64,000 bases of DNA from Nemertoderma westbladi (Eukaryota > Animalia > Xenacoelomorpha), in the NCBI GenBank assembly GCA_032718475.1, contig JAUCBJ010004774.1:26556-90555 (forward strand), written 5' to 3'. Of this stretch, positions 2,153-40,782 are shown in pieces. Every line of letters begins with the position of its first letter. The first letter of the stretch is position 1. The position numbers and the translations under genes were made by a program. Below the pieces are notes generated by a model. That model saw nothing but the letters and a program-made list of their open reading frames with translations. It was not told the origin of the DNA and searched no databases.

Positions 2153-4390
2153 GATAGATAGATAGATAGATTTATTTATACATTATGTAAAAACAATAAC
2201 AAATACACCAAACAATGTACCGGTATAAAGGTATTGTCCAACATAACATATAGGATTACCCCTAAAGCTTTGCAGCTTATTTCCAAGGGGGTCCTTTATG
2301 TTACTTGGTTACAAATACAATATTACACTACGCTAACCTAAAACCAATATAAAACGTAATTACACTATGTACATGTACAACTTTACCGAGAGCGTGACAA
2401 TGCCCGACTCAACGATAAAGATGTAATGTACAGAACAATTTATTATAAAACGTAATTACAGTATAAATAGTAAATAATTAATAAACTAATAACTTACTGT
2501 AGGACTATTGTACCTATTTTTACATTGCACACGGAGATGAGATTTAACTGCAGATTTAAAAGAATGTTGATTATTTAGGTTTTTAATTTCATTAGGCAGA
2601 GCGTTCCAATTTTTTATGCCGTTAAAAAAGAAAGTATCAGATTCAAAGGATTTACAATTCGGGAGGTAGAAGTTTGAAGCACTAGCTCTGGTACTGTAAG
2701 AGTGTGTATCGCGTACTCTGTTGAATTTTTGTTTTAGGTAATTGGGACATTTACCATTATACACTTTATGCACATGGTTAAGGTGTAGCTGCTTAACTCT
2801 ACTATCTAAGTTAAGTAGTCCAGATTCAGAAAAGTCATCTGGAGTTAGGTGGTGCCTAGGTTTGTAGTCTTTAATAAATCGTACTACTTTATTCTGAGCT
2901 ACTTGTAATTTACATTTAAGCTGTTTGGTTAAGCCTTCATACCAAGAAGAGCACGCATAGTCCATGTGACACTGTATTAAAGAAGAGCAAAGTAACTTGC
3001 GGGAGTCGGTGTTCAAACTATTTTTATTTCTGTATAGAAACCTAAGCCTACTGTTAACTTTCGAGAAAATATTTTTCACTGTACTTTCTCCTGATAAGCA
3101 GTTATCCAATGTGGCGCCTAAATATTTAACTTCCTTTTTATTTTCAATCTTATGTCCATTACTAGTGACTTCAAACTTAGTTACCTTCTTTAACTTTCTT
3201 TTGGAACCAAACAAAATACTTTCAGTTTTACCGTAGTGAATGGATAGCTTATTATCAACCAACCACTCATTACAGGATTCTAGAACTGCACTTAACTTTT
3301 GGGAAATATGGATAGGATCTTTATGAGAGAAAATAAGAGCACTGTCGTCGGCATATAAAATCAGTTTAAAATCGGGATCTATACTACTTATCATATCATT
3401 TACATAGCATACAAAAAGCAGAGGACCTAATATACTACCTTGCGGTACACCACAGGTAATCTCTTGTACAGTAGACAGCGATTTGCTAATGACTACAGTT
3501 TGACCTCTGTCTGACAGGTAGGACTTGAACCAGTCTATAGAACCTACACCCATCAGGCCTAACTTACCAAGCAGAATTTCGTGATCTACAGTATCGAAAG
3601 CCTTTTGTAGGTCCAACATTACCATACCAGTATATAAACCCTTTGCGTTATTACATCTAATTGTATCAGTTAAGTTAATAAGGCAGGTGTCTGTAGAATA
3701 TGATTTACGAAAACCGGACTGAAGTTCATAGATCAGATTTAGCCTACTAAGATGTGCTTCCAGCTGTAGAAAAACAGAACGTTCTAGAATTTTAGATACA
3801 ATACTTAAGATACTAACAGGTCTGTAATTACAGGGTTCTACTTTACTATTCTTTTTATACAGAGGAACAACCTTAGCTAATTTCAGTTCGTCTGGTACTA
3901 CATTATCTACGATAGAGTAATTAATAATAAAAGTAATAGGCACTTTAAGTACTTCAGCACCATCCTTAAGAAAACGGGCAGGTATTAGATCTAGACCGGT
4001 ACTTTTTGAGGCTGATAGGCTAAGTAGATTTTTAAAAACGAAATCCTCAGAAACGGGTTTTAAAAATAACTTTTCTGAATTTTGTAACTTTTCTAAATAA
4101 AAATTTTTTAGAGTTTCGGACCCTATACTATATTTATTACTTGATAACGGTAATTTCTTAACTAAATTAGAGGCAACATTAGTAAAATAATTATTAAATA
4201 AATTACTAACTAGAGTATGATCATGAATCAGCTCACCGTTATCTTGCAGAACAATATTCGATTTAGATTTAAGGTTTTTATAACCTAAAGATTTTAGGGT
4301 AGACCATAGACTTTTAGGATTATCTTTATTCTCACTTATTTTGTTGTACAAATATTCAGATTTAGCTTTTTTTATTTCCCGTTGGACAAG
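2153..4390 (-). mobile_element. 5'-truncated CR1/L2-group LINE in fasciclin intron 2
   Basis: RT ORF 2486-4351; 3' hairpin near 2255-2295; AATAAA followed by a (TCTA)n tail at 2153-2177. Confidence 0.85.
2486..4351 (-). CDS. LINE reverse transcriptase (5'-truncated ORF2)
   Basis: [46 protein letters not shown] motifs in an open 621-aa frame. Confidence 0.9.
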
Positions 4391-4752
4391 GTTTATAGCT
4401 CTTTATAGCTCATATTTCAGAAACTCTGATGTACTTGAGTTGGGAAATTCTAACGCTCTATATTGACATCGACACTTCCTTCACCGTCTGCTGATAGGTC
4501 TACGCTATACCTGTATATATATATATACATATCTGACACATGAATCATATATACATAATTAACCCAAAAACACCACCAATATTATATTATGAATCATTTA
4601 CAAAGGTCAGTTTATTCTCAATTAAATTGGGCTTCTTCCTAAAATATTTCCAACTCTGGTTTATTGTTTTGGTTCCTTTCAATGTAACCTGCTTCCTTAC
4701 TAAACACAAAAATTACTAAAATTATATTTCATATAATATATTATACACATAC

Positions 4753-6143: not shown

Positions 6144-6242
6144 ATGGATGCTGTTCTGACTGGAGCTACATTGTCTTCGGGAGAATTATTTGGCGAATCA
6201 GCTGTCAGTAGTCAAGCAATCAGAACGGACGCTGTATCTCAG
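6144..6242 (+). CDS. PKD1-like exon (start of LamG/ConA-like domain)
   Basis: TTTCAG acceptor, MDAVLTGATLSSGELFGESAVSSQAIRTDAVSQ, CAG|GTTAGG donor; phase 0 matches the next exon. Confidence 0.6.
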
Positions 6243-6687
6243 GTTAGGGTAATTATTATATGGCGGATCAGCTGTCAGTAGAGTCAGCCAATCAGAACAG
6301 AGGCTGTATCTCAGGTTAGGGTAATTATTATATGGCGAATCAGCTGTCAGTAGTCAGCCAATCAGAACAGAGGCTGTATCTCAGGTTAGGGTAATTATTA
6401 TATGGCGGATCAGCTGTCAGTAGAGTCAGCCAATCAGAACAGAGGCTGTATCTCAGGTTAGGGTAATTATTATATGGCGAATCAGCTGTCAGTAGTCAGC
6501 CAATCAGAACAGAGGCTGTATCTCAGGTTAGGGTAATTATTATATGGCGGATCAGCTGTCAGTAGAGTCAGCCAATCAGAACAGAGGCTGTATCTCAGGT
6601 TAGGGTAATTATTATATGGCGAATCAGCTGTCAGTAGTCAGCCAAACAGAACAGAGGCTGTATCTCAGGTAAGGGTAATTATTATAT
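6190..6687 (+). repeat. Minisatellite, alternating 59/61-bp units, each containing the exon end and splice donor
   Basis: About 8 copies of TATATGGCGRATCAGCTGTCAGTA(GA)GTCAGCCAATCAGAACAGAGGCTGTATCTCAGGTTAGGGTAATTAT; degenerate copies continue at 6906-7030. Confidence 0.95.
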
Positions 6688-6905
6688 GGATGTAAACGCT
6701 ACGCCGACAGCCGACAACCACTGCCATCAACAGCAAATATGAAAATGTAACCTGAGTTCGTGACTCTCGCTTATTGTTTTGGTTAGAATAACCTTCCACT
6801 GTAACCTGTTCCTTTCCTTCAATTAATAAATAACATTAATTAGCTTTAATAATGGTTGTCGGCGTTGGTTGTCAGTAGTCGGTTGTCGGCGTAGCGTTTA
6901 CACCC
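6688..6905. mobile_element. MITE with 9-bp TSD (Mutator-like)
   Basis: TIRs GGATGTAAACGCTACGCCGACA / TGTCGGCGTAGCGTTTACACCC; TSD TTATTATAT at 6679-6687 and 6906-6914. Confidence 0.8.
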
Positions 6906-7095
6906 TTATTATATGGCGAATCAGCTGTCAGTTATAAAGTAAACAGAATCGAGGTTGTATCCTGTATCTTAGGATAGGCTAATTATTATAGGGCGAATCA
7001 GCTGCCAGTAGGCAGCCAATCAGAACAGAGGCCTACATACCAGTGTGAACTTCCATTACCACAACTGTTTTTGAAAATGAAACTTTTTAATATTG

Positions 7096-8637: not shown

Positions 8638-10161
8638 GTAAGTCCATTGTTATAGGCCTACAGTATTACAATAATAATGGCTTATTCATACGCTTGCACT
8701 TATTTCACGACACATTATTAGCCAACCACTGGCGGTGGTTGCAGGAAATAATTAACATTCAATTCACAAGTCCATCACACAAATATTTTTCTACACAAAC
8801 ATACAAGTAATATGTTTTCTTCCATTTTTTTTTATTAGGAATGCAATTTTGTGGTACAAGTTTCTGCAATGGGACAATACAAATTGGACCGACAACCCCC
8901 CCCCCCCCACCCCCAAATTCACTACAAATCCGAATGAGATCCTCCCCCTCCCTAGTGGGTGAACCAAAATTTTTATTCTCTGTTTCATTCTTTAGCTTCA
9001 AGCGTTTGAAAAAGGTGTCTCCGACGATATTGTACCAGTTTCATTTGTTACGGGATTAACCTTAAGACACTTTATTACCTACAGAAACCAAATCTGAGGT
9101 GTTATGTCACATCAGATAAGGTATTAATCATTCATGCCTCACCCGGGCGCGGGGTCACGCTTCATTCATGTCTCAAGGCGTGGGGTCACATCGTCCACTT
9201 TTTACACCTACAGTAGGAATTGGGTTACACCTCATTACACAGCCTTACCTGGACGGGGGTCGCGCTTCATTCATTCATTTTCATTTATGTCTCTTTATTA
9301 AGTCTTAATTTATATCTCAGTATATTACAATATTATGTGTATAATATCGAGTCTATTCAAGCACTAATTTATAATATCATTTGCAATTATAATTATTTTA
9401 TTAATGCAGTGAAAACGAGAATGCAAATGTGAAAGAATTGTACGAGCTGATAATATAAATCTTCAAATAATTTCCTATACATATCTCAGTATCACAATAT
9501 TTTCAAAATTCTTTACTTATTTCAATCTTCTACTGTAGTCCATCATACAAAATGTAATGGCAATTAGAACAACCCCCCTAACTCCCCCCCCCTCCCTTTG
9601 GCAGCAGCAATTACTAGCCTTGCTATCTGCAATGGTGCCTTCCCTCATTATCAACTAGTGTTATTACGCACAATATACTATACAGTAATTATACTTATAC
9701 TTATAATATATAATATTTGTGCCTATTTATATTATATTAACTTGATAATACTAAACGGGAAAATAAACAGTAAAACAGTAAATCAAAGTGGGAAAATCTG
9801 TTAGCACCCCGATTGTATGCCAAACCCCAAAGGTCAACTTACAATCAGGGAGGCTGCTAAAGGAACCGAGAGAAAGCCGCCCCAATATTAGATTATTACA
9901 ACAACATATCCATTGGGTAAGAAAGTGGAGGAGAGCCAGCCCGTCTCTTAATTTTTTACTTTATATTACGCGATCAATTTTCACTCATCTCGTCATGAAC
10001 CCAACATGTATGTAAACTTTTGTTAAATTTGTTGGCTATGCGTTTGCGGTTGTTTGGGCGGAGTGTGGTAGGCCTACACTTTTCACACTTAAATATTTTG
10101 GTTGTGAAATGTTACAGGGCATAGCTATCTGAGATATTTCATTTATATTTTATTATGAGAG

Positions 10162-10710
10162 TGTGACGGGATCCAGGAAGGATCCCGATTTATCCGGTTG
10201 TTTAATTCACTCGTCCCCGCCGTGTGCATGAAAGGTAAAAGGGAATCCGTGTCGTTCGTTGTATATAATAACTGATATAGATATAGGGTATATAGATATA
10301 GGTGTACGGATAATGTTGTCGTATACAGAAGGCGGGATACGGTAATTAAAGTCCCGGTCCTTCCCTAGCTAAACTAACTAACCTAAACTAGCACCAATAT
10401 TACACTGAGATAACTGAACTGATATGATTACTGCCAAGTGGCTATATTGCACGGTTGGCCTTGTTACTCTACCTAACCGATGCCTTTCCCCCCTCTGATT
10501 GGTTGATACCCTTGTTGGCGCCCTTTGGAGTGTTTCCGTTCACTCCACCTGTTCTCTCTGGGTTAGGGGTTTGGCCCCTGACCCTCATTGTGTGTTTCCT
10601 TCCCATTTTGTTGGGGTGGCACGAGTTGGTTGATTACCCAATCTCGTGGCTCCCAATATTGCTTATCGGCTTAACTTTATGGGGTGTTAGCGGGATTGAA
10701 TAAGCTAACA
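10162..10710 (-). repeat. 3' LTR of element 1
   Basis: Direct repeat of 23711-24259; only one substitution seen by eye. Confidence 0.95.
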
Positions 10711-11426
10711 CTCCCCCCCATGCTATCTTCCCGGTGAGAAGATAGCATCCACCTTAAGTGCGCTACAATCCCGCTGGATCCCGATCTAGTATCTGGTGTG
10801 GGGTGGAATTCTTTTCTCTCGGAGCCGGCTTTCCAGGCCGCTCCCTATGGGTATGATAACGCTACCCTGTATGCCTGGCATCTCATGTCGGGCCGATCGC
10901 GCTCACCTCTCACGCGACTTTTGTTTCCCCAACACTTTTGCCCTATCTCTTCTCCACTCTCACCCTAACTCTCTCATACCCTCGGACCTCCTCGTCCCTC
11001 ACTCAGCCTCTTATTCTCCCCCCCCCCACACACTAGAATTGCGTCCGCACTCTCTCCGCACTTCGCACTATTTGCTCTGTTCCTCAACCCCACTTCGATT
11101 GCCTCATCCCTTCTGACGAATCCCCCCCCCCCCCCCTCTTGTGCCGTCGCACTCAAGAAGCGTGAAATTGTCTGGTGTCTCGTCCATAGTGCCATAGTCA
11201 GTTATCCCCCCAGTCCCAGTAGCTAATTGAGAAAGGTTGTATGACTATAGTACTTACTCCGAACGTATATTTGTAGATTACTAATTACTACGTACGTACA
11301 TACAAATTGCACTTATATGATTATTTGCATTAATTAAATTTGTACTTAATAGTTCGTACGTCCCACGCGGCGCCTTCCAGGCGTACCACGTCCAAGTCTC
11401 AGTTTCTCTCCCTCGGCTCTGGGAAC

Positions 11427-13973
11427 CTATCTGTTCCTCTGGGCATAGTTCCCCCTGGCGTCCTCTTCCCTGGGTCGTTTCTTGGTTACCACCGCTCCTC
11501 TGGGATCCGCTTTCTGCTTTCGGACCTTCGCCGCCACCTCCCTGCTGATTCCGGCTGTTGGCTCCTTGGGCGCTGGTGTTATTAATGCCCGATATCGCTT
11601 CGCCGGTGGCCCCTCAGAGTGGCCCTGTTGTCTCCCTCTGGTGGCGTCCCATAGGATCATCTTCATGGCTTGCGGTACGTGCTCCGCCAAGAAATCCCTA
11701 AACTCCCCTCGGTTCTGTGGCGTCCACCTGTCCAAATATCTTTGTGTATTCATCACTCCGGCATACGACGCCGCTGTTGCTACCTCTTGATAGGTAAAGG
11801 GTAGCCTCCGCTTTATGATTTCCATGTGAGCCTCCTGATTGATAAGGAAGAAACCCCACTTGAACTCCTGGGCCTTCATGCGCTGGCGCGTCATGGCCCC
11901 GACGTCGGCCCACTCCTCGAATCTCCTGAACTTCTCTTCGTCGTCCATCCAGTCGCACTGGCGTCCGTAGTGTCCCCGAAAGTGGCACTTTGGACATCGG
12001 TTATGCAGTCGTGGACACGCCCCCATCCTGTGGCTTGGTTCTCGGCAGTAGAGACAAAAGGTTCCCTTTTGGAACTGGTACAGGCAGCTCCTTTCCTGGT
12101 GGGTCTGTCTCCCACAGTAGTCGCAACCGAGTACCAATGTCTCCCGCCCCATGTCGTCTCTCGTCCCAAGCGATCTCCGCGGTCTGTGGAGTCGCTGGTA
12201 GGCGAATTTCTCCACGTTGGTGTCCCTGTCTACGTCGATCTCTCCGCCCCTCTCGGGCATTGTCTCCCCGAATACTATCCGTGGTGCCGTCCCCGGTTGC
12301 TCGCCCAACCTGATAGTGCTCCCCGCGAAATCCATCGCCGGCTCCTCGTGCACCCAGGTCCGCTTGCCGGATCTGTTCCAGAAGGCCCTCGCCCCACTGG
12401 CCGTCACCACCCTTCCGCCAACCCAGTCCGTGTCCGAGTGGCCTATCCTCTCGATGGGCGGCATCTCTCCGAACTCGTCGTCGTCCTCCTCCTCCTCTGG
12501 CAGTGGCTCCAACCCCGGTATCCCGATGGATCCACTATGTCCCTTCCCGCCTTGGCTCTCGCCCGTAGCTCTCCATCCCTCTAACTCCCTTAACTTCCTT
12601 GGCGGTTGGTCGCCTTCGGCGCCCGCTGGTATGGGCATCGCTTGCAACCCCGACGTCGACTGTTTCGGTGATCCCACTGTCCATCCCAGTTCTCGCCCTA
12701 GAGACTCCCCCGAACTCCCTGACGAAGTCCAATGAAGCTCGTCTAAGCCCGCCTGTTCCTCGAAGCCGTAACTCTGCGTCCTGGCCTCCTCTTCCCTCTC
12801 CTCTGCTTCTATCCTCTCCTGTCTAGCGACTTCTTCCAGTCGCTTTGCTTCTCGTCTATCCGTTTCTAGCTGCTCCCATCTCTGATACGGCGTATCTGTC
12901 TCCCCGTCTACCAGATGCCGGCTGTTGTAGTACACCGACTCGCCCTTCAGCCCCGGGTGGTCTACCAGACCGTCGAAGGCCATTTTAAAGGCTCTCCTGT
13001 AGCTTAGGGGTGATCCCGATAACAGAAATGCCCCTGGTTCCCTCTCGATAACCACGGTCATAAATAAGTTAAGCAAACTTATCATCATCCAATCTTCCTG
13101 CAGGATATATCGCTTCTGATATACCTTTATCGCTCCTCTGCGGAATTGATATACCTCTTGCTTTCCCGGTCTCGCTCCCCACTTTATCGAGTTCGCTAGT
13201 TCTGCTCCGTATTCTTCCCTGAACTTCCCCCAGTCCATCGGTTTGTGGCACACGAGCCCCAATAGTTGGCCCATTGCCACCGCCCCGCATTGGCCTGTGT
13301 TTTCGACTACCCCCAACCCATCCGGTGCCGTCATAGCCATAAAGACCTTCTGCATATCCAGGAGGTTGGTGGCGTCCGGACCGATGATTCTCTCCGCATC
13401 CTCACGAATCGCCGATCCCACTTTCGTCGTCGACTTCTCTCTTACCAAGACTTGTACCGCTTTCGGTAACTGGTTTAATTTCGGCCCGTCCATCTTCCCA
13501 TACGTTCCTAGATCGAATAAGAAGATGTCCCCATTTGGCGCGGCCAAATGTAGGAGTATGGTCCTGGCCGACCCCGCCGTTCCTCGTCTCGAACCCGCCT
13601 CGTCTTCCACGGTTCCCTCGTCGTCTAGGATCATATATCCTCCTCTGTTGACGGACTCTATGAATCTCTTCCAGTCCTTCCTCGGTGATTCCCTCGGGTA
13701 CTTCGGAATCCCGAATTTCGCCTCGTCCCCTTTCACCACGTAGTGGAAGTGTTGGAAATTCGCGTTGTCCAGCGACGGCGTCCCGTAGGTCCCGACCAGC
13801 CGCTGTTCGTGCATCTCCCGGAAGTGATCCTGCAGCGCTCGTGCCGCGTGACCCCTTTCCAACCTCTCGTAGTATCCTCTCGTCTTCTCTTCCGGATGCC
13901 TCTCGGTGAAATCCACCAGTATCTCCTTTCCTCCTGATTCCGCCTTTCTCTTTCTGATCAACTTGCTCGCCAT
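11427..13973 (-). CDS. Element 1 ORF3: putative DEDDy 3'-5' exonuclease plus three CCHC zinc knuckles
   Basis: First ATG at 13973. ExoI-like ILDDEG, LLHLAAPNGDIFLFDL, LPKAVQVLV..KVGSAIREDAERI (ExoII), QKRYILQED (ExoIII). Knuckles CDYCGRQTHQERSC, CLYCREPSHRMGAC, CPKCHFRGHYGRQC. Confidence 0.75.
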   Translation of the reverse strand: MASKLIRKRKAESGGKEILVDFTERHPEEKTRGYYERLERGHAARALQDHFREMHEQRLVGTYGTPSLDNANFQHFHYVVKGDEAKFGIPKYPRESPRKDWKRFIESVNRGGYMILDDEGTVEDEAGSRRGTAGSARTILLHLAAPNGDIFLFDLGTYGKMDGPKLNQLPKAVQVLVREKSTTKVGSAIREDAERIIGPDATNLLDMQKVFMAMTAPDGLGVVENTGQCGAVAMGQLLGLVCHKPMDWGKFREEYGAELANSIKWGARPGKQEVYQFRRGAIKVYQKRYILQEDWMMISLLNLFMTVVIEREPGAFLLSGSPLSYRRAFKMAFDGLVDHPGLKGESVYYNSRHLVDGETDTPYQRWEQLETDRREAKRLEEVARQERIEAEEREEEARTQSYGFEEQAGLDELHWTSSGSSGESLGRELGWTVGSPKQSTSGLQAMPIPAGAEGDQPPRKLRELEGWRATGESQGGKGHSGSIGIPGLEPLPEEEEDDDEFGEMPPIERIGHSDTDWVGGRVVTASGARAFWNRSGKRTWVHEEPAMDFAGSTIRLGEQPGTAPRIVFGETMPERGGEIDVDRDTNVEKFAYQRLHRPRRSLGTRDDMGRETLVLGCDYCGRQTHQERSCLYQFQKGTFCLYCREPSHRMGACPRLHNRCPKCHFRGHYGRQCDWMDDEEKFRRFEEWADVGAMTRQRMKAQEFKWGFFLINQEAHMEIIKRRLPFTYQEVATAASYAGVMNTQRYLDRWTPQNRGEFRDFLAEHVPQAMKMILWDATRGRQQGHSEGPPAKRYRALITPAPKEPTAGISREVAAKVRKQKADPRGAVVTKKRPREEDARGNYAQRNR

Positions 13974-14442
13974 TCCGAACACTCACTCGCTCACCTGCAA
14001 GGTGGTGCCTTACCAAGGCGCAATACAGATGAGTGATGTATCTAGGATGTTCTGTACCGTCCGATAATGGCCTATTTCTTACTTAACTGCGCCTTTTAAC
14101 CTAAATTATTACTAATTAATTTTGAAGCTAGTAAATGAGCGTAATTTACAATTTCTGTCCGTTACTTTTATTATGTTCTAGAATAACTTTCCTTGTGTTG
14201 CCATTATTTGTAACTTTCAGCCCTTTTCTTATTTATTTTTAATTTAATTTTAATTCCACTGTCCTACTACTTACTATTGCCTATGGATTGTTCTATTCTC
14301 TAATCCACATTTTGGCCTACACTGTGGGCCTGTGCAGTACAGCAGTATGCGTCGTGTGGCCACACGATTTACCCAGCTGTACTCATATGCCCCCCTCTCG
14401 CTACTAACTGCTAACTATATCTATATCTTATATACCCTTTTA

Positions 14443-15100
14443 CCTCTAACTCTAACTCTTCTCTAACTAACGGTACTACGTACCCTCTAACTCTCTAATT
14501 AACGGTACTACATACCCTCTAACTCTTCTCTAACTAACGGTACTACGTACCCTCTAACTCTCTAACTAACGGTACCATGTACCCTCTAACTCTTCTCTAA
14601 CTAACGGTACTGCGTACCCTCTAACTCTCTAACTAACGGTACTACTTACCCTCTAACTCTTCTCTAACTAACGGTACTACGTACCCTCTAACTCTCTAAC
14701 TGACGGTACTACGTACCCTCTAACTCTCTACTTAACTAGCGGTACTACGTACCCTCTAACTCTCTAACTAACGGTACTACGTACCCTCTAACTCTCTACT
14801 TAACTAGCGGCACAACGTACCCTCTAACTCTTCTCTAACTAACGGTACTGCATACCCTCTAACTCTCTAACTAACGGTACTACGTACCCTCTAACACTTC
14901 TCTAACTAACGGTACTACGTACCCTCTAACTCCTCTCTAACTAACGGTACTACGTACCTCCTAACTAACTAACTAACTCTAGGTACTACGTACCTCCTAA
15001 CTAACTGACTCTAGGTACTACGTACCTTCTTACTGACTAACTAACTCTAGGTACTACGTACCTTCTTACTGACTAACTTTTGCCTACTAACTGCGTACCT
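14443..15100. repeat. Internal tandem array (32-36 bp, about 18 units) between pol and ORF3 of element 1
   Basis: Unit CTCTAACTAACGGTACTACGTACCCTCTAACT(CTT). Confidence 0.95.
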
Positions 15101-15145
15101 ACTATGTACTATTATTTTATTTTTATTTTCTGTTTTTATCTATTT

Positions 15146-18100
15146 TTATGTGTGGGAAGGGCGTCTCGCCCTCAATCCCACCCCCCTCAGTCCAAAGCTT
15201 GGACGACTAAACTCATGACAGACTCCACTAAGGTGCCCCTTCAGCAGACAGCATTTTCCCACAGCTCTCCTGTAGGTTTTTCTGTCCTTCGCACCTATCT
15301 TACCACCTATCCGCACTTCTACCGACCGGACTCTTCCGTCCTCGTCGGAGTAAGTTCCTACAACTCTTGCCAACCGCCACTGGTTGTTGATGATAGTATC
15401 ATCCGTAACGATTACGAGATCTCCCTCTCTTAACTCCCTATTTGGCTTCCTCCACTTACTCCTTTTATGGAGTATGGGTAGGTATTCCTCGACCCACCTC
15501 CTCCAATACTCTGCGCTTATTGCTTTAGCGACTTTCCAACTTTGGCGGGAGTGTATGTCATCTGGGTCTACACCCCGCATATCGATGGTCGCTGGCCTTT
15601 CCATCAGGAAATGGCTAGGCGTCAGCACGTCTAATGACTCAGGGTCATCATTCTCCGGGTATAGCGGTCTGCTATTAATGATCCCCTCGCACTTCGCAAG
15701 CACTGTCCGTAAGACGTCCTCAGTGACCATGTGGGTGTTCATTAGCTTCGTCATTAGACGCTTAGAACTGCCCACCAGTCTCTCGACGCATCCTAGTGTA
15801 TGTGGTGCATACGGCGTCCTTCTCTCCCACTTTACTTGTCGTCGTCTCATGGCTGCCCTGACTTCTTCTCCTTCCAAGATGTCCAAGGCGTCTGCCATCT
15901 CATTCTCTGCGCCCACAAAGTTGGTGCCGTTGTCGCTGTATATCACTGCGATCGTCCCACCTTTGCGGTCCCTAAACCTTTCTAAGGCATTAATGAATGC
16001 TGATGTGGTTGCATCTTGGGCGAGTTCTATCCCTACCGCCCGCGTGTTGTTACATACGAAGATGATACCGTAGCGTTTCTCCGTGTGCCGCATCACCTTT
16101 ATCTTTATCGGCCCGAACATGTCCACACCGCAATGCGTAAATGGCGGGTCGTGCTGTCTTACTCTATTCGCTGGTAGTGGCGCCATCTCTTGTATGGCTC
16201 GCTCCTTCTTCGCTCGTCGGCAGGTCTGGCACTGCCCCACCGCCGCTTTTACCTTCTTCCTCAACTGTTTGACCCAAAAGGTCCTCCTTATCTCCGTGAG
16301 GGTTCGGTTGGTGCCCCCGTGCAATATTGACTTATGGGAGTCCCAGATAATCTGGTGGACTATTGGCGATCCTGTGGGAATGATGATGGGTTTCGGTGGT
16401 ATGACTATGCTGTTGTTGTATCCCACCCTAGAATTCATTACTAGAATCCCGTCGTCATTAAGTTGTGGCGACAGCGTGATCAGCTCGCTGTCCCGTCGAA
16501 GGTGCTGTTGGTTACCGACGCATTCCACCTCGTCGCCATAGTTCTTCCGTTGTTCATAGCGGATGACTGCCTTGGCCGCTCCTTCCAGATCTATGGTTGT
16601 CCTGATCTTCTTGTCCTTGCCAACTCCCGCGAGGAAATTCCCGAAGGCTCTCCAGTATGCCACTAGTTTCTTGGTCTTATACCAACTAGAACTGTAGCTG
16701 AGGAGTTTATCCGTCGGGTTATCGCACAGTTCTCGTTTTGGTTGCACATCCCTAATCTCCCTCACCATCTGGGAGTATATCTCTTCTCCCTCTGAATCTC
16801 CTTCTTCTCCCTCTGACACTACTTCTGAGCCCGGGTCCACCTTTCTCATCGGCGGCCAGGCCTCCTTATCGCTCAGAAATTGTGGCCCATGTTGCCACAA
16901 TACTTCCTTCTTCAAGAAAGTGTGGCGTACTACGCCCCTCGACAACAAGTCCGCTGGGTTCTCGTCCGTTGGGCAGTAGTGCCACCTTTCCAGTTCTGTG
17001 CTCGCCCTTATTTCGTCCACTCTATTTGCGACGAATATTGGGTATCTCGTCCTTTCGTTATGTAGCCAACCAAGCACTACCATGGAATCCGTCCAGTAGT
17101 GTGTCTCCACTATGTTGGGAATAGTATCCACTAGGTAGGCTGTGGCTCTAACTCCTAGTCTCGCAGCTGTCAATTCTAATTTGGGAACTGATGCTGAATC
17201 TGGCGGCGTTGACTTTGCTTTGCTAAAGGCTAGTCTGGGCTTATGAGCCCCCTCTCGTTGTACTAAGTAGAGTGCCGCTCCGTACGCCTCCAACGACGCA
17301 TCGGAGAACATGTGTAGGTCCAGGTTCGTCATGTTCCCATCCGGGAAATACACTCGTGGCATGTTGTATGTTCCCATCTTCTCCAAGTCTCCTGTCCATT
17401 TACTCCATTGTTTCTTGATTTCCTCTGGTACCTCTACGTCCCACTCATCCTTCAATTTGTATACTCTCTTGAGTATCTGTTTCCCCATAACTAATAATGG
17501 GGATGCTAGGCCTAGGGGATCGTATATCCTTGCTATATACGATACATAGCCCCTCTTCGTGTGGATGTCTGCGCCCTCCTGGCTCAGCTGATACTTCAGT
17601 TCGTCTGTCTCTCTGTTCCACACGATTCCCAATGCCTTCTGTTGAGATACTGTTCTTTTAATCGCCATGTCCTGCCCTTTGGCTGTTGTGGGATTATCCA
17701 TGGTCGATTCTGGCCTCTTGTCCTCTATCGCCTTGATAAATTCTTCCGAACTGGATTGGAATTTGGTCAGGTTAAAGCCGGATCCTTTCAGGATGTCGCG
17801 AACCTCGCGCCCCGTGTCCAGTATCTCCTTAACCGTATTTCCAGACTCCATTCCGTCGTCTACGTAGAAGCCACGTCGAATCATATCGACGGCCCTAGTG
17901 CTGTATCTATCTTCCTTCCCCTTCACTGTGTCTCTGACTGCCATAGTCGTCGTAAATGAAGACGACTTGGCTCCCATGTTTTGAACTACCATCTTATATG
18001 CTGGCATTATCGACGGTTCTTCCTCGCCGTTATACCATAAGAAGCGCTGACTGTCGCTATCTTCCTCCGTTACACGGACTTGGTTGAACATGCCTTCTAT

Positions 18101-20626
18101 GTCACACGTGAAGGCGTGTTTCCCATTCCTAAATCTAAGTAGGACCTCTATGCCCGAATTGTATATGTCTGGGCCTTCTAACAGGTAGTCGTTTAAGCAT
18201 TTTCCGTCAGTCTTTGCCGATGCGTCGACTACCATCCGTAGTTTACCTTTCTTTGGGTCTAAAGCCACGTGGAGTGGCAGGTAATATGTCCTGTCCGTGT
18301 TCGGCTCGTCGACCGGTAACTCCACGGCCCATCCTTTCTCGACGTACTTCTTAATCGTTCTGTGGATGTACTCGTTCTTCTCGGGGCTCCGTTTTAGTGT
18401 TTGTTTCAGCTTGCGGAGTCTCGTGAGTACCATCCCTCTATTATCGGGCAGTGGTATCTTCGGTAGTTTCCATACCATTCCTATAGTATACCGCCCCTCA
18501 CTGCATGTCATCGATTCCTCCACGCTTTGTAAAGCCTGCTTGTCTTCTACCGAGGTCCCGACCCCGGTCTCTTTTAGTCCCTCGAAATCTTGCCTGAGCA
18601 GTCTTTTGAGCTGCTCCTCTGCTCCCTCATCACCCATTTCCTGCATTGTTCCCGCGAACATGCATCCTGATGTCTCCGACATCCTAAATGGTATCTTACT
18701 CTTGATTGGGCCACTCAGCGTCCACCCGAATGGTGTTAATATCGCCACCGGGTCACACTGCTTGTCTTCGCCGAAGACCGTTTGCATTCTTTCGTTGGCC
18801 ATTGGGCAATCCATTCCTACTATGATGGATACCTTCCTAACGTCCACGTCTGGGATTGAGAAGTCAATGTCGTCCAGGAATTTATATTGCTCGACCTCGA
18901 TGTTGGTTGGCCGCCTGGCATTGATATTAATTGACTCTATCACTTGGATGGGGTCGATGGTTGCCCCATAGTCGCATCCCGGTGCCACTGCTGCAATTGC
19001 GCACCGTCCTGTTCTCATCTCCAGGATCTCATCTTTGCTAGAGATGGTTGTCACCACCATTCTGCTTGGCCTCGTTCTCAATCCTATCTCTTCGGCCACC
19101 CATTCCTCGACTAATGTGAAGGCAGCTCCACTATCAACCAGCATTAGTGTTGTTACTGATCGATTGCCTTCCCCAATCACTCGCACGGGTACTACTCCAA
19201 GTAACACCGTTCCTCTCTTCTTCGCCCCTACTGTGCTCATCGCCATCATCTGGCCTCTCCTCTGACCAAACTTTACCGGCTTCTCCTTGCACTCCCTTGC
19301 TCTATGTCCACTCATTACACATCGCGAGCAGATTTTGTTGCTCAACGCATAATCTATCTGATCCTGCCTAGGTAGCGCCTGCCAGTACCTGCAGTTCATG
19401 GTTTGATGAAGCGCATTTGCGTGTAGCTGGCATTTGCTCTTTGGGTCGTAGCCCTCTTTATACAGTGCATTGCGTATCGCAGCTGCGTTTGTACCAAAGT
19501 CCCTACTATTCTTATTGTTTGAATTCGGCCTACTGGACGTACTGGGGTTATATTTATTCGTGTTGTTATTGTTCCCCTGTCCATTCCATGGTGTTGTCTT
19601 ATCTTTGGCTAGCTGTGGACTTGCAGTCCCCTGCGTCGCTGCATATGGCAATGATTGCCTGAGTCTCGGTAATGCGTTTGATGTATTGCGCTCTGGTTTC
19701 GGTCTATGGTAATCCGTCTTCGGTCCCTTTCCCAGGCTATCTTCGCTATAGACTGGGTCAGTTATTAGTTCAGCCTCGTAGTTTAAGAAGCTTGACATTT
19801 CTTCTAAACCCGGTTCCACACCCTTCTTGTCTCGAGTGGAGAAGGCGATCTTCCTCCACTCGTTGCGCAGCCAATTTGGTAGTGCCTGTGCTATCGTGGT
19901 GATGTTATTGGACGCGTTGAGCTCGTATGGCGCGTCTATCGTCTTCAGCACGATTAGCGCCTTTTCGACTTTGTTAGCGAACGTCTTAATGCTAACGGGA
20001 TTATCCTGTAGGCCACCCGATGTTATGCCTCTCAGTGTCTGTCTGATGATCTTGGCCGGGTGCCCGTATTCCCTATCCAGTGCCCGCCATGCTGTCGTGA
20101 AGCCGCCCTCTATTCCTTGATATTGCCTCACGATGTCGTATGCTGGGCCTCCCGTGTATACTTGCAGATACTTTAGGCACTCCGCCTGCGTCAAGTTTTT
20201 TGTAAGTATTTCGTTACTATACATGCGCCGAAACTGTAGATATTCTTCCGGCCTACTCCCATCGAATTTGAATGGTTCCACGGGTGGTAACTCGATCCTC
20301 GTTTTCAACGCATCGATCAACGTGGCCATCCCCATCGCCTGCACTTCCAATGGGTTCGATGGATGCTGTATAGTTTCTCCTGTCTGGTGCGGTTCGTCCG
20401 TCCTATTTCTTGATCTTCTTTGACTTGGGTATGTCATTGGGGGTAGCGGCCCCCTCCATATCTCTGTGTCACACGACCTATTTTCATCCAAGGGTCTCGT
20501 TGTTCTCGCTCCTATCGGGGTATATTGTTGATATTGTGATGGGGGAATGTCACCCTGCCCCCCCCCCCCCCCCCCACCGGTATGTTTGGTACTGGGGTTG
20601 ATGTTAATATGTTGGGGCCCATACAC
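15146..20626 (-). CDS. Element 1 Gag-Pol (capsid-like, CCHC, protease, RT, RNase H, integrase)
   Basis: KFDG..YLQF, CSRCVMSGHRAREC, LVDSGA, DIEGMFNQV, FYVDD, FSDAS, WTDS, H-x4-H..CQTC, VDMFGP, SDNGTNF, ERL, all in an open frame. Confidence 0.95.
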   Translation of the reverse strand: MYGPQHININPSTKHTGGGGGGGQGDIPPSQYQQYTPIGARTTRPLDENRSCDTEIWRGPLPPMTYPSQRRSRNRTDEPHQTGETIQHPSNPLEVQAMGMATLIDALKTRIELPPVEPFKFDGSRPEEYLQFRRMYSNEILTKNLTQAECLKYLQVYTGGPAYDIVRQYQGIEGGFTTAWRALDREYGHPAKIIRQTLRGITSGGLQDNPVSIKTFANKVEKALIVLKTIDAPYELNASNNITTIAQALPNWLRNEWRKIAFSTRDKKGVEPGLEEMSSFLNYEAELITDPVYSEDSLGKGPKTDYHRPKPERNTSNALPRLRQSLPYAATQGTASPQLAKDKTTPWNGQGNNNNTNKYNPSTSSRPNSNNKNSRDFGTNAAAIRNALYKEGYDPKSKCQLHANALHQTMNCRYWQALPRQDQIDYALSNKICSRCVMSGHRARECKEKPVKFGQRRGQMMAMSTVGAKKRGTVLLGVVPVRVIGEGNRSVTTLMLVDSGAAFTLVEEWVAEEIGLRTRPSRMVVTTISSKDEILEMRTGRCAIAAVAPGCDYGATIDPIQVIESININARRPTNIEVEQYKFLDDIDFSIPDVDVRKVSIIVGMDCPMANERMQTVFGEDKQCDPVAILTPFGWTLSGPIKSKIPFRMSETSGCMFAGTMQEMGDEGAEEQLKRLLRQDFEGLKETGVGTSVEDKQALQSVEESMTCSEGRYTIGMVWKLPKIPLPDNRGMVLTRLRKLKQTLKRSPEKNEYIHRTIKKYVEKGWAVELPVDEPNTDRTYYLPLHVALDPKKGKLRMVVDASAKTDGKCLNDYLLEGPDIYNSGIEVLLRFRNGKHAFTCDIEGMFNQVRVTEEDSDSQRFLWYNGEEEPSIMPAYKMVVQNMGAKSSSFTTTMAVRDTVKGKEDRYSTRAVDMIRRGFYVDDGMESGNTVKEILDTGREVRDILKGSGFNLTKFQSSSEEFIKAIEDKRPESTMDNPTTAKGQDMAIKRTVSQQKALGIVWNRETDELKYQLSQEGADIHTKRGYVSYIARIYDPLGLASPLLVMGKQILKRVYKLKDEWDVEVPEEIKKQWSKWTGDLEKMGTYNMPRVYFPDGNMTNLDLHMFSDASLEAYGAALYLVQREGAHKPRLAFSKAKSTPPDSASVPKLELTAARLGVRATAYLVDTIPNIVETHYWTDSMVVLGWLHNERTRYPIFVANRVDEIRASTELERWHYCPTDENPADLLSRGVVRHTFLKKEVLWQHGPQFLSDKEAWPPMRKVDPGSEVVSEGEEGDSEGEEIYSQMVREIRDVQPKRELCDNPTDKLLSYSSSWYKTKKLVAYWRAFGNFLAGVGKDKKIRTTIDLEGAAKAVIRYEQRKNYGDEVECVGNQQHLRRDSELITLSPQLNDDGILVMNSRVGYNNSIVIPPKPIIIPTGSPIVHQIIWDSHKSILHGGTNRTLTEIRRTFWVKQLRKKVKAAVGQCQTCRRAKKERAIQEMAPLPANRVRQHDPPFTHCGVDMFGPIKIKVMRHTEKRYGIIFVCNNTRAVGIELAQDATTSAFINALERFRDRKGGTIAVIYSDNGTNFVGAENEMADALDILEGEEVRAAMRRRQVKWERRTPYAPHTLGCVERLVGSSKRLMTKLMNTHMVTEDVLRTVLAKCEGIINSRPLYPENDDPESLDVLTPSHFLMERPATIDMRGVDPDDIHSRQSWKVAKAISAEYWRRWVEEYLPILHKRSKWRKPNRELREGDLVIVTDDTIINNQWRLARVVGTYSDEDGRVRSVEVRIGGKIGAKDRKTYRRAVGKCCLLKGHLSGVCHEFSRPSFGLRGVGLRARRPSHT

Positions 20627-23600
20627 CTATCCGCAATAATTCCCCCCTCCCCTGGGTATATGTTATGTCCCTGCATGCTGTAGTCATACTGCTGTACTGG
20701 TACCGGTATAGGCCTATCAACTTCTGGCCTACTCGTCGGTATGTATTCCGCGACTTCCGGGTTTAATCCCGTTGTCCGCGCTATCCTATCCCCTACATTG
20801 CCTCTCTCAGTATGGCCTATGGTATGTGCAGTAAGGCCTACAGTATGTCCTACAGTCTGCGTGTGTTGCTCGGGATCGAAGTTTATTCTTCTCGAATAAT
20901 CCTCCCCGCGGCTACTGTATTCTCGATCGGTAGGTACATTCCGTCGGAAAGTTTCTCTTCGACCTCCCTCTCTACTATTCTCGTCTTCGTACCGGTACAT
21001 CGCGTATCCCTCCATCGGCGCATAATGCACCTCACCAGGTCGCATCTCTCCGGGGCGACGGCAATCTCCCGGAGTCCGACCCCACTGACTCTCCGTTCTC
21101 ATCTCGACTACCGACGGCTCGCTATCCGTCCTCGCTCTTCTATCGTTTGCGGCGATACTTCTACTACTGTCTTCTCTTCCTCTCCCTCCAGTGTAGTATT
21201 CCCGCTCGTGAGATCTCTCGTCGACCTCCCGGTTAAACCCCACTGTTCTTCTTCCCTCTTCTGATCGGGCTCGACGCTTCGTCCGCCCTCTCACGACGTC
21301 AACCTGTCTCTCTCTGCTCGGTCGCACGCCACTGGGGATACTCACAATCCCCCTATTACTGTCCGTCGCCGGGTGTTGCGGTTTACCTATTTCGGCCCGC
21401 GCATTATCCGCTGATGGCTGTGGAGCACTCCCTGCCCCCCCCCCTTTCGCCGCTAACTCGCTGTTGTGGGGCCCCTGTAGCCCCCCCCCCCACTCACCAC
21501 ATCTAACTTCGCTATCCCTCACCCCGCTACTATATCCCTCTTTAGTCGACACATCTACCCTACCGCGGTAGGGTCTATTCACCCCCGCCTCTCCCTCTGC
21601 TATTGCGTGGCCTACCAGGCCCTCTACTCCCTGCCTACCAACTACGTGGCCTACCAGGCCCTCACTGGGTCTACCCAACCCAGCCGCTCCCTGCCCACCA
21701 ACTACGTGGCCTACCAGGCCCTCTCTGGGTTGGCTCAATCCCGCCACTTCCGACCTACCAATTGTACGGCCTACCAGGCCCCCGTCTGCCTGGCCATACA
21801 TGCCCGACGTGTTCATGTTAATAGCACCCATATTGGAAACGGAATTAATTTGTCCGTTTGAAACAAAATCATTTGAATTATTTTGTAAATTCGGACTTGG
21901 ATCATTATTTAAATTATTTGAATTATTTTGCACGTTCAAATTGAAATTATTATTTGTACTTAAATTTAAATTACTGCTACTAGGTAAAGTATTATTTGCT
22001 GCAATAAAGGTTTGGTTAGAGTTATCCCATACGGTACTATTAATATTAACGACGTCTACTATAGCATTATTATCACCCCCCCCCCCCCCGCCCGTACGGT
22101 CACACCAGTCTTGGGTCTGTCGTGCGGTCCCTGTAAGTGGGGTATTAATAAATGTATCCACGGCCCCTGGCTCCTCGAAAATACTCGAGCTAGCCCCACT
22201 CTCAGACGCCCCTACTCGCGCCAATTCCCGTTCGCGCGTATGTACAGCTTTGTACCCTGTAAGCTCACCTTGACGTTTCTCTAGTTCCTTTTGCTCACCC
22301 TCCTTCCTTGCCATTCTCTCCTTACACTCCCGTGCGTCCCGTTCGGCCAATTCCAATTCTCTTCTAGCCCCCTCCCTTCGTCTCGCCTCACGCTCTCTGC
22401 GTTCGTTTTCCTTTCTCTCCTCGCGCTCTCTGCACTCGTTTTCCTCTTTCGCCTCACGCTCTTCGCGCTCATTTTTCTCCCTCACCTCGCGTTCCCTGTG
22501 TTCCGCCTCACGCTCTTTGCGCTCAATTTTCTCTCTCGCCTCGCGCTCTTCTTGTTCCTTCCTCCCTACTTCCTCACACTCCCTAAGGCTTCTCGCGGCC
22601 CTTTCGGCCCTCTCCCCGGTTTCCTTAATCAACGCCATTTCCCTCTCTAGCAGCACTCTCCCCTCCTCTAACCGTCTGCCTACTTCCCTTTGACCTTGCT
22701 CTATTAAATTGAGACGGTACGCGGCATTTATATCTCCCACCCGTCTTTCTTTCACGGAGGATGTAGCAGACTTATCGGTTGTAACGGATTCCCTCCGCCT
22801 CCCCTTCCTACTAACCTTCCCCCGCCTCCCGGAACTTCCTCCGACCGACGAGGCTGAATCCTCGGGGTTAACCTCGGATTCGTCCTCCTCGGGTCTCTCC
22901 CAACCCACTAATTTTACTCCCCGGGCATCGACTAAGTACGGCCCTACGTACACTACGCTAGGTTCTATACCCCCATACCGCCATAAGTCATACAGTTCCT
23001 CGGCAACCCCTCTCGCTCTCTCCTCGGCCAGTCCTCTTTGCCCGAAGCGCATTAGATAATAAAAGTGTCTATTCGACTCACCTAGTCTTCTCTTTAGTTT
23101 TACCTTGTCTATCGTCGCCCCTCCTCTGGCCTCCTCTAATAGTCTCCGGGTCGCGTTGTAGGCCCGTCGAAGTCGATCAGAAACCCCGACATCCTCGTCG
23201 CCGACCTCTCGTCCGTCTCTCCGGGTCCGGCGTCGTACCGTCGGCCCCGCCGTCGCCGTTTCGGTGGGCCACTCGTCGCTCTCGGCCTGTGGCTGGCCGG
23301 CGACATCGGTACCGACATCTCCTCCGTCTCTTCGGGTCCGGCGTCGTACCGTCGGCCCCACCGTCGCCGTTTCAGTGGGCCGCTCGTCGCCCTCGGCCTG
23401 TGGCTGGCCGGCGACATCGGTACGTCGACCCACGTCTCGTGTCGACTCGTCTCCGTCTCCCTCCGTCTCGCTCTCTCCTTCTCTTGGCTCGACCTCGGGT
23501 TCCAGGCGGCCCCTCTCATCCTGGACTGCCGGATGACCCGTTACCGATGGGTCCGGCGTTGTGGGCCTGTACCGCCTGGTTGCGGCCTCGCGGATCGTTA

Positions 23601-23649
23601 ATTCTTCGTCCGGGGTCCGCGTCGGCGTTGTTTCTCCCGACTGGCTCAT
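20512..23649 (-). CDS. Element 1 ORF1: long N-terminal Gag extension (coiled coil, low complexity)
   Basis: ATG about 60 nt after the 5' LTR; E/R-rich coiled coil; overlaps the gag-pol frame at a G18 run. Confidence 0.75.
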   Translation of the reverse strand: MSQSGETTPTRTPDEELTIREAATRRYRPTTPDPSVTGHPAVQDERGRLEPEVEPREGESETEGDGDESTRDVGRRTDVAGQPQAEGDERPTETATVGPTVRRRTRRDGGDVGTDVAGQPQAESDEWPTETATAGPTVRRRTRRDGREVGDEDVGVSDRLRRAYNATRRLLEEARGGATIDKVKLKRRLGESNRHFYYLMRFGQRGLAEERARGVAEELYDLWRYGGIEPSVVYVGPYLVDARGVKLVGWERPEEDESEVNPEDSASSVGGSSGRRGKVSRKGRRRESVTTDKSATSSVKERRVGDINAAYRLNLIEQGQREVGRRLEEGRVLLEREMALIKETGERAERAARSLRECEEVGRKEQEEREAREKIERKEREAEHREREVREKNEREEREAKEENECREREERKENERREREARRREGARRELELAERDARECKERMARKEGEQKELEKRQGELTGYKAVHTRERELARVGASESGASSSIFEEPGAVDTFINTPLTGTARQTQDWCDRTGGGGGGDNNAIVDVVNINSTVWDNSNQTFIAANNTLPSSSNLNLSTNNNFNLNVQNNSNNLNNDPSPNLQNNSNDFVSNGQINSVSNMGAINMNTSGMYGQADGGLVGRTIGRSEVAGLSQPREGLVGHVVGGQGAAGLGRPSEGLVGHVVGRQGVEGLVGHAIAEGEAGVNRPYRGRVDVSTKEGYSSGVRDSEVRCGEWGGGLQGPHNSELAAKGGGAGSAPQPSADNARAEIGKPQHPATDSNRGIVSIPSGVRPSRERQVDVVRGRTKRRARSEEGRRTVGFNREVDERSHEREYYTGGRGREDSSRSIAANDRRARTDSEPSVVEMRTESQWGRTPGDCRRPGEMRPGEVHYAPMEGYAMYRYEDENSREGGRRETFRRNVPTDREYSSRGEDYSRRINFDPEQHTQTVGHTVGLTAHTIGHTERGNVGDRIARTTGLNPEVAEYIPTSRPEVDRPIPVPVQQYDYSMQGHNIYPGEGGIIADRCMGPNILTSTPVPNIPVGGGGGGRVTFPHHNINNIPR

Positions 23650-23710
23650 CTCGCTTGGTGATTGGTGGCTGGTGGTTTAGCTGGCTAGGGGAACAACTCG
23701 ATTTAATTAC

Positions 23711-24259
23711 TGTGACGGGATCCAGGAAGGATCCCGATTTATCCGGTTGTTTAATTCACTCGTCCCCGCCGTGTGCATGAAAGGTAAAAGGGAATCCGTG
23801 TCGTTCGTTGTATATAATAACTGATATAGATATAGGGTATATAGATATAGGTGTACGGATAATGTTGTCGTATACAGAAGGCGGGATACGGTAATTAAAG
23901 TCCCGGTCCTTCCCTAGCTAAACTAACTAACCTAAACTAGCACCAATATTACACTGAGATAACTGGACTGATATGATTACTGCCAAGTGGCTATATTGCA
24001 CGGTTGGCCTTGTTACTCTACCTAACCGATGCCTTTCCCCCCTCTGATTGGTTGATACCCTTGTTGGCGCCCTTTGGAGTGTTTCCGTTCACTCCACCTG
24101 TTCTCTCTGGGTTAGGGGTTTGGCCCCTGACCCTCATTGTGTGTTTCCTTCCCATTTTGTTGGGGTGGCACGAGTTGGTTGATTACCCAATCTCGTGGCT
24201 CCCAATATTGCTTATCGGCTTAACTTTATGGGGTGTTAGCGGGATTGAATAAGCTAACA
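23711..24259 (-). repeat. 5' LTR of element 1
   Basis: Minus strand reads TGTTAGC...CCCGTCACA and contains CCAAT, TATA-like CAATATAG, Inr-like TCAGT and ATTAAA. Confidence 0.95.
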
Positions 24260-25341
24260 GAGAGGAAGAAGAACATACAACGTTATTTACTATATATGTA
24301 ACAAAATAATTGTTTTCGTGTTTAACTTGGAAGCCTCCCCAAATAGTTGATATACAATTATATTTAAAATTATTTCCATGGTCATGGTCATTCACCCGTC
24401 TTTAGTTAGAAATTTGTTTGCATGAAAGACAGTTTAGTTTAGTTTTTACTGATTTATCAGTCATATCATTATCAGTCATATCATTATCTCATATCTGACT
24501 GGGGTAATAATAAAGGATAGGATAAATGGAAGCAAAGTGTGACAGTAACAAATATTTCCCCGTCACCCTAGCATGTCTTAAGTATATGATATATCAAAGT
24601 GGGAAGTTTGGATTCACTGCATAAATGCAGTTCACCAAACTTCCCCCGAATGCACACTGTAACTTCCCCCTTCCCACAAATATCCACTGTTGAATTAATT
24701 TGAAGCGATATAATAAGTACAAAATTGTGCGAGTTTTTAATTGTGTGGTCCAATTGTTATTTGATTTCTATTTATTATTTAAAGTGCATTTAATATCACA
24801 CTGGTTTTTAGAATATTATACTATACAACCTTATGTTTTATTAATTTACCAAATCGAAGCCTCATAAGGGCCGGTTATTTGTACACATATCCCCTAATGC
24901 GCTCAGTAAGGTTCAAACAACATATTGAACCAAGGTGGACGGTTAGATGGCCGCGCAAACTATCTGTGTACTAAAATGTTAAACCTATATAATATATCTG
25001 AAAAAAGTTTTTGTCTGAATGCCAAGACGTGAGGCGGCCTACAGCCAGTAGTTATATATGCTGTAATTATAGCCGGCGCTTACCTTATCCAAATGGTTAA
25101 TTTGTTTAAAATGATATTTATTCATTTTGGTTTAAATAATTACATTGGTTTTGTGGACCATTTATTTTGTAGGTATTCTCCATTATATTTAGTGCTGTGT
25201 GATTTCTTGGGGAGACATTTTTTAAATTGGTGTCCCATAATTTTTTGGTGGAATTTTCATAAATTTTGGTGTGGCTTTAATTTGGTAGCATATTCAAATA
25301 TATTATATAGAACTCTACTAACATACTACTCTTGTTTTCAG

Positions 25342-34911: not shown

Positions 34912-35027
34912 ATATAACAATACGTGGTATAGGTAAACAGCAGGATCAGCCGCGAGTTATATTCAATTCGCAGGAATTGGATTTGTCCGCACTCGTTATA
35001 ATCCAATGCAACCGAATAAAAAACCCG
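34912..35027 (+). CDS. PKD1-like exon (REJ start)
   Basis: DITIRGIGKQQDQPRVIFNSQELDLSALVIIQC; GTAAGT donor. Confidence 0.7.
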
Positions 35028-35032
35028 GTAAG

Positions 35033-40770: not shown

Positions 40771-40782
40771 GACACGTATATT

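Follow-up and report, generated by a model that had tools for sequence, protein, structure and literature searches.

BEL/Pao retrotransposons are described as carrying gag, pol and sometimes env, and the question raised by a 64,000-nucleotide stretch of the Nemertoderma westbladi genome (contig JAUCBJ010004774.1; hereafter the window) is what occupies the env position of an intact 14,098-bp BEL/Pao element on its minus strand (10162-24259). We detected there a large third gene, open reading frame 3 (ORF3), which is not env and not peculiar to this one element: a whole BEL/Pao lineage keeps it. ORF3 starts 1.17 kb downstream of the stop of pol (15146), ends 0.7 kb short of the polypurine tract and is laid out as a DEDDy-fold domain, a charged helix, a disordered linker, three CCHC zinc knuckles, a conserved helical module and a basic tail (aa, amino acids; pLDDT, predicted local distance difference test):

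13995-13996, minus strand: putative splice acceptor AG lying 21 nt upstream of the ORF3 start codon, picked by eye from the sequence only
11427-13973, minus strand: ORF3, 848 aa, ATG start (open reading frame list)
12924-13793, minus strand: DEDDy (RNase D/WRN/Nibbler/EXD2-type) exonuclease-fold domain, about aa 61-350 (profiles and model)
13617-13625, minus strand: ExoI, D117-x-E119 (column D in 48/92 domains, E in 54/92)
13398-13400, minus strand: ExoII, D192 (D in 49/92)
13095-13109, minus strand: ExoIII, Y289-x3-E293 (Asp in this column in 48/92)
12771-12890, minus strand: predicted long charged helix, aa 362-401 (model)
12147-12752, minus strand: linker, aa 408-609, low-confidence and weakly conserved (pLDDT <50 over most of it)
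11955-12125, minus strand: three CCHC zinc knuckles, aa 617-673, exact C-x2-C-x4-H-x4-C
11679-11954, minus strand: conserved post-knuckle module (F-E-x2-A-x2-G-x2-T-x2-R ... G-F), no named family (alignment)

A first-pass annotation, made from the letters alone, had described an intact frame between pol and the polypurine tract, on the same strand of a young element, and had held that it was not env. The coordinates, the long terminal repeats (LTRs; identical at 548 of 549 positions, with one mismatch) and a GAGAG target-site duplication agree with the first statement. For the second, the signal peptide and transmembrane anchor expected of env were not found: the N-terminus is basic, as judged by eye without a signal-peptide program, and peak 19-residue hydropathy is 1.3, with no transmembrane helix and a DEDDy-type fold instead. 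Among the long ORF3 relatives, 5 of 50 reach a hydropathy of 1.8. The quoted ExoI, ExoII, LLDMQ and ExoIII motifs were all recovered (KVGSAIRED at 13424-13398, LLDMQ at 13364-13350, YILQED at 13109-13092), as were the acidic stretch (aa 361-410, 30% D+E), the three exact knuckles and the basic tail (26% K+R). The ExoIII motif, read as YxxxD/E, is there, but in an alignment of 92 domains the acid that falls in the catalytic column is E293 and not D294, which sits in a variable column. Compared with the pol of its own element, the knuckle module gave no match (probability 1.1%). A joint at 12082->12670 in X1, a set of contigs of uncertain kind from one public run, was rejected as an intron; it lacks intron ends and is taken for a deletion in a single copy.

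As a single sequence, ORF3 had no match in Pfam and its domain none in a PDB sequence search, and a word-indexed protein search returned nothing for ORF3 or for an alignment (A1), a search of low sensitivity whose silence is not absence; with the knuckle alignment it returned four unnamed proteins. A full HMMER scan yielded 80 relatives, scoring best over the knuckle region, and an iterated profile picked up the N-terminal domain in 34 of them, as well as in one additional cluster member and a second BEL element of the window. Against PDB, a family profile built from 33 full-length members matched EXD2 (E = 1.3e-13), the trypanosome RNase D TbRND (1.9e-6, spanning both the exonuclease and the knuckles), Egalitarian (1.1e-4), WRN (0.012) and Mut-7 (0.063). 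In the ESM Atlas, 24 of 30 matches to aa 70-345 fell in 3'-5' exonuclease clusters bearing PF01612 (score 0.94), with the domain present in 34% of the best such cluster's members. A structure model from the single sequence reached a pLDDT of only 32, and one built from the alignment gave a confident exonuclease core, for which Foldseek ranked TbRND first, followed by Egalitarian, Nibbler, Rrp6, Exd1, EXD2 and Klenow; all 44 Foldseek rows among the matches listed are DEDD-type nucleases or their relatives. A second structural aligner (VIA), in a comparison that took in aa 50-352 only, placed Nibbler highest (Z 14.8, root-mean-square deviation 3.5, 201 residues aligned); NrnC and TbRND come within 1 Z of it, a tie, and WRN is slightly lower. 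Because the top Z values tie, they do not fix the cellular donor. We regard it as settled from the predicted model that the N-terminal domain has the DEDDy, RNase H-like DnaQ fold, as the first-pass annotation had proposed to check by Foldseek.

The catalytic residues of this domain vary. Among the 92 aligned domains (excluding 3 partial ones, and with near-duplicates among the rows), 34 have the tetrad DEDD, 6 have DEDE, 40 are altered and 12 are incomplete. The query has the ExoI D-x-E and ExoII D that define DEDDy enzymes, keeping D117, E119, D192 and Y289, with E293 in the ExoIII Asp column, and it falls in a DEDE clade of five proteins (FastTree support 0.91; 88 rows, 4 left out, catalytic columns removed). 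That the tyrosine and four acidic residues persist along long branches suggests a metal site of variant type. In TbRND, the equivalent Asp230 is described as binding the A-site metal and as required for activity (PMC7797062), so the activity of the E293 form may be low; whether the ORF3 of this element would be catalytic is, on its residues, about evenly balanced. The tree places tetrad loss on several separate branches, on which the knuckles stay, and catalysis looks ancestral because DEDD is retained by 34 of 92 domains and is scattered over the tree. An earlier proposal that the protein trims RNA is therefore upheld for the fold and weakened for the cutting, which is not assured with Glu293 here and 40 of 92 tetrads altered.

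We found that relatives of ORF3 share its genomic context. A DNA pattern for the knuckle motif gave at least 120 matches in metagenome contigs and 0 in viral contigs, and the 80 with flanks were analysed: the motif was in frame in 76 of these listed loci and the exonuclease domain was present in 59. An upstream pol lay on the same strand at 41 of the 76 listed loci with an in-frame motif and on the opposite strand at none; 39 listed loci held pol and the exonuclease domain together, and pol was present in 35 of the 39 having at least 1 kb upstream of ORF3. One of the four without it, L022, is a pol-less element between LTRs. Pfam, run on 18 of the 41 pol pieces, found Peptidase_A17 and DUF5641 in 15, DUF5641 in two shorter ones and rve only in one, all 15 of the 15 long pols tested being of BEL/Pao type. 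Direct repeats enclose ORF3 in L013 and L023, and pol with ORF3 also occurs in L010, L056 and L079, from other collections. The position behind a BEL pol, which the first-pass annotation had proposed to look for, is a recurrent one.

Proteins of the ORF3 family range from about 600 to 1500 aa. The pol-less LTR element in L022 (5180-10931) is older and keeps exonuclease and knuckle frames with one in-frame stop, and P0001 has the knuckle-plus-helix module in two copies. ORF3s with the knuckle module and no detectable exonuclease domain were seen behind BEL pol in L047 (3341-6529) and L059 (6880-9648), and in L035 (116-3118) and L054; their sequences may possibly reflect domain loss or replacement. 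Two candidates, L014 and L071, were rejected as chance motif matches, and three (L012, L019, L052) have broken motifs.

The gene also descends with its element. FastTree trees of integrase and ORF3 for 31 elements, 2 without exonuclease being left out, were strongly correlated (Mantel rho 0.89, p 0.001, 999 permutations) and had 18 of 28 splits in common, or 12 among the splits with support of at least 0.9 (18 and 15). The lowest pairwise integrase identity was 23%, the query's closest relative standing at 34%, and 13 altered-tetrad elements with intact-looking pol formed one clade in both trees. In the query's own family, the N-terminal part of diverged X1 copies showed 39 listed differences, 28 synonymous and 11 non-synonymous, with 30 at third positions, giving a ratio of non-synonymous to synonymous differences per site (pN/pS) of 0.11, or up to 0.17 with transition bias, an estimate drawn from three low-depth contigs that do not cover ExoI. 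Between loci, 30 pairs of at least 60% identity (3 identical, 1 saturated, 26 usable) gave ratios of non-synonymous to synonymous substitution (dN/dS) of 0.04-0.25 for the exonuclease: 0.07-0.16 in 9 DEDD pairs, 0.04-0.25 in 13 altered-site pairs and 0.12-0.20 in 4 others, the pairs not being independent and dS being high. The purifying selection anticipated for a functional gene is thus present, and these data show that ORF3 is an old, vertically inherited, non-membrane accessory gene in a frame of its own, constrained whether or not it is able to cut.

The element that carries the query ORF3 has the following further features:

10157-10161, no strand: target-site duplication GAGAG, left (sequence; X1 empty-site joint)
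10162-10710, minus strand: 3' LTR, 549 bp, TG...CA (LTR comparison)
10711-10719, minus strand: polypurine tract directly against the 3' LTR (sequence)
14450-15072, no strand: block of tandemly repeated units (about 32-36 and 67 nt) that separates pol from ORF3 (repeat search)
15146-20437, minus strand: gag C-terminal part and pol, 1763 aa (open reading frame list, Pfam)
20512-23649, minus strand: ORF1, 1045 aa, without convincing family (open reading frame list, Pfam)
23702-23710, minus strand: primer-site position, lacking a TGG start, with 9 nt that exactly complement LTR nt 361-369 (sequence)
23711-24259, minus strand: 5' LTR (LTR comparison)
24260-24264, no strand: target-site duplication GAGAG, right (sequence)

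BEL/Pao elements are recognised by LTRs of 0.2-1.2 kb with TG...CA ends and a target duplication, and here we found such LTRs and duplication, a polypurine tract and the order protease, reverse transcriptase, RNase H, integrase with Pao-type domains. The gag-pol frame reads DUF1759, protease, reverse transcriptase, Peptidase_A17, integrase, DUF5641 (E = 5e-40 for Peptidase_A17, 1e-23 for DUF5641, 2e-10 for DUF1759). It opens at 20626 and overlaps ORF1 by about 115 nt, which suggests a frameshift between the two; ORF1 has no family in Pfam and no counterpart among the related loci. A tRNA primer-binding site was found in neither BEL element of the window, and membership in BEL/Pao is kept because the assignment rests on pol. 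An empty site occurs in X1 (joint 10156->24260, 5 shared letters), which makes the insertion a young and polymorphic one. The repeat block, about 620 bp here, is variable in X1.

A second BEL element lies on the plus strand:

41749-55868, plus strand: second BEL element, LTRs 41749-42881 and 54725-55868, target duplication CTGCA
52889-54646, plus strand: its related ORF3, with the second half of the exonuclease and the knuckle module (profile)

Its LTRs (1133 and 1144 bp) are 98% alike, and its gag and protease are open; reverse transcriptase, most of RNase H and integrase are missing. Its ORF3 is an open 585-codon frame (half-domain E = 1.7e-11), and the first half of the exonuclease domain was not found upstream. 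Neither window element has a TGG primer start (23702-23710, minus; 42882-42893, plus), and in each the nucleotides after the 5' LTR are exactly complementary to its own LTR, over 9 nt (361-369) in the first and 12 nt (425-436) in the second, a complementarity reached by 1 of 200 and 0 of 200 shuffles, respectively. Self-priming of the Tf1/Sushi type shows this pattern (PMC6317226); for BEL/Pao, a limited search of the literature found no self-priming. Self-complementary sites were absent from L022, L023 and 13 TGG-type relatives (3-8 nt), so ORF3 is not tied to self-priming lineage-wide. Most relatives (L013, L029, L031, L036, L037, L039, L053, L062, L066, L068, L069 and others) have a primer site starting TGGCGCCC, which we take to be of tRNA-Lys type. 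The profile of the International Committee on Taxonomy of Viruses (ICTV) lists tRNA-Arg or tRNA-Gly primers for BEL/Pao (PMC8742986). No tRNA genes were found in the window. Elsewhere it holds non-LTR retrotransposon fragments with reverse transcriptase and endonuclease in Pfam (2486-4402, 29387-32185, 39734-40735, 60271-62497) and satellites at about 6160-7030, 34990-35560, 37100-37670, 40770-41420 and 56070-56370.

What such a gene might do for its element is less firmly answered. Our favoured reading, of which we are about half convinced, is that ORF3 would hold on to RNA 3' ends and so shield the element from RNA surveillance by the host. The domain persists where catalysis is lost, so its main task is probably end-binding, with trimming optional. 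Nibbler, Mut-7 and Exd1 have roles in small-RNA pathways, as the rotifer literature also touches on. The knuckles would bind single-stranded RNA and guide its 3' end into the exonuclease pocket, as in TbRND, whose knuckles raise RNA binding and cleavage (PMC7797062); forms with the full tetrad would trim the RNA, and forms without it would cap or sequester it. Less firmly, the target may be host small-RNA guides or host-tailed element transcripts, which are not separable here, the guides being trimmed or sequestered, or the tails on element RNA removed or masked. A narrower version, doubtful at present, makes ORF3 a small-RNA antagonist whose active forms would trim guides and whose dead forms would act as decoys, with selection keeping both. 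If true, ORF3 would offer a natural series of transposon-encoded suppressors of Piwi-interacting RNA (piRNA) or small interfering RNA, built on a piRNA-pathway-type nuclease fold.

Several points weigh against protection from surveillance. At the Pfam cut-off PF01612 is found neither in the query nor in any of 30 locus ORF3s (it is weak in 3 of 46 relatives, the best at 23.3 bits against a cut-off of 23.6), and at least four loci (L035, L047, L054, L059) have the knuckles with 415-684 residues upstream and no detectable exonuclease. The flanked loci lie mostly (67 of 80) in one block of eight accession prefixes, and thus possibly in few hosts, and the motif scan selected on knuckles, so that the share of BEL elements lacking the gene is not measurable from it. 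WRN, Klenow and NrnC come within 2 Z of the top structural match, and DNA as substrate fits too because DEDDy folds also act on DNA. For the rotifer DEDDy ORF3, no clear correlation with copy number was reported (PMC5408684). Strong purifying selection and strict vertical descent, finally, are explained by a housekeeping role in replication no less well than by an arms race.

Such a role, as a cofactor packed with the element that would trim the primer, the genomic RNA end or the cDNA ends, or edit reverse transcriptase errors, is a real though lesser possibility. It would account for the way ORF3 strictly follows integrase in descent, even at pairwise identities as low as 23%, and for knuckles that resemble nucleocapsid-type RNA binders, and both window elements are without TGG and have an LTR self-complementarity that would require a 3' end to be generated; the DEDDy domains of Dada transposons have likewise been proposed to process 3' ends (PMC3706591). 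However, the 13-element subclade has lost the tetrad with an intact-looking pol, where a primer site is visible in relatives it is mostly of the ordinary TGG kind, with intact and non-intact tetrads alike, and gag and pol alone suffice for replication of the ICTV-listed BEL/Pao elements (PMC8742986). Rather improbable is an Egalitarian-like adaptor, in which the fold would read RNA stem-loops and route element RNA to the germ cell, replacing env without a membrane. Egalitarian-BicD-RNA structures stand at Foldseek ranks 2-4 (Z 13.3), 40 of 92 domains are altered and yet the pairs examined are still constrained, and the env position and long charged helices would suit it; the Egalitarian match is, however, no better than those to Nibbler, NrnC, TbRND or WRN, and DEDD is kept in 34 of 92 domains scattered over the tree. 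That the gene is retained for the good of the host, serving antiviral defence or RNA decay while the element carries it, is a kind of role already proposed for accessory domains of other retrotransposons (PMC6338049) but seems very unlikely here, where BEL pol precedes ORF3 in 35 of 39 informative listed loci, L022 lies between LTRs, no host-gene context was seen among the listed loci and this insertion is young, with an empty allele. Finally, although the single sequence is matchless in Pfam, PDB sequences and the word-indexed search, we dismiss a chance frame with look-alike motifs and the one-off host-gene transduction that the first-pass annotation had named as its refuting outcome, both being refuted by 80 relatives, BEL context, co-phylogeny, purifying selection and the fold match.

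Among known systems, BEL/Pao elements offer the nearest frame for the element itself. Like Belpaoviridae, it has LTRs, a polypurine tract, the order gag, protease, reverse transcriptase, RNase H, integrase, and Peptidase_A17, DUF5641 and DUF1759 (PMC8742986, PMC3118150); unlike the listed members (4.2-10 kb), it is 14.1 kb long, with a non-env third gene and no tRNA-type primer site (PMC8742986). The ICTV profile gives gag, pol and env-like genes only (PMC8742986), a term search for "exonuclease" found nothing in a BEL/Pao survey (PMC3118150) or an env survey (PMC13524379), and no BEL/Pao exonuclease gene was found in the literature searched, which lay outside Repbase Reports, subscription journals and supplements. 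This is the first BEL/Pao lineage that we could find with a DEDDy-knuckle gene, in intact, variant and dead forms of a protein family unseen by Pfam, and it is because Pfam does not see ORF3 that the gene has likely gone unannotated until now. Dada DNA transposons also have a DEDDy domain, but inside a DDE transposase and not as a separate gene (PMC3706591).

The fold and motif order are shared with EXD2, WRN-exo, Nibbler (Mut-7), Exd1 and Egalitarian, the best profile match being EXD2 and the best structural one Nibbler, at 12-16% identity to ORF3, and none of these was seen with its knuckle module. TbRND (PDB 7C42-7C4C; PMC7797062) does combine a DEDDy exonuclease with CCHC knuckles behind it (Z 13.9), a fusion that thus already exists in a cellular RNase D. 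TbRND is a cellular, mitochondrial protein with four knuckles and a 28-residue linker (PMC7797062), whereas ORF3 is mobile, has three knuckles and some 260 residues separating the domains, and shares 16% identity with it; the two architectures are likely convergent.

The closest parallel in mobile elements is that named in the first-pass annotation and borne out by the literature, the DEDDy ORF3s of the bdelloid rotifer retroelements Juno, Vesta and Athena/Terminon, described without activity being shown (PMC5408684, PMC6431247). Like the ORF3 of Juno and Vesta, ours is an RNase D-like DEDDy frame after pol at the env place, with no transmembrane segment, and their tetrad is also altered, DEED being reported (PMC5408684). 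Compared by description, our ORF3 differs in its BEL/Pao host, in its three knuckles and further fused module, in descending with integrase across a deep lineage where the rotifer ORF3s are patchy, and in having constrained pseudo-nuclease branches, unlike the rotifer ORF3s. It thus goes beyond the rotifer case, which left function open, by adding co-descent with pol, purifying selection and comparable intact, Glu-variant and dead versions, and with these natural versions it becomes testable whether retrotransposons of animals encode proteins that counter small-RNA silencing.

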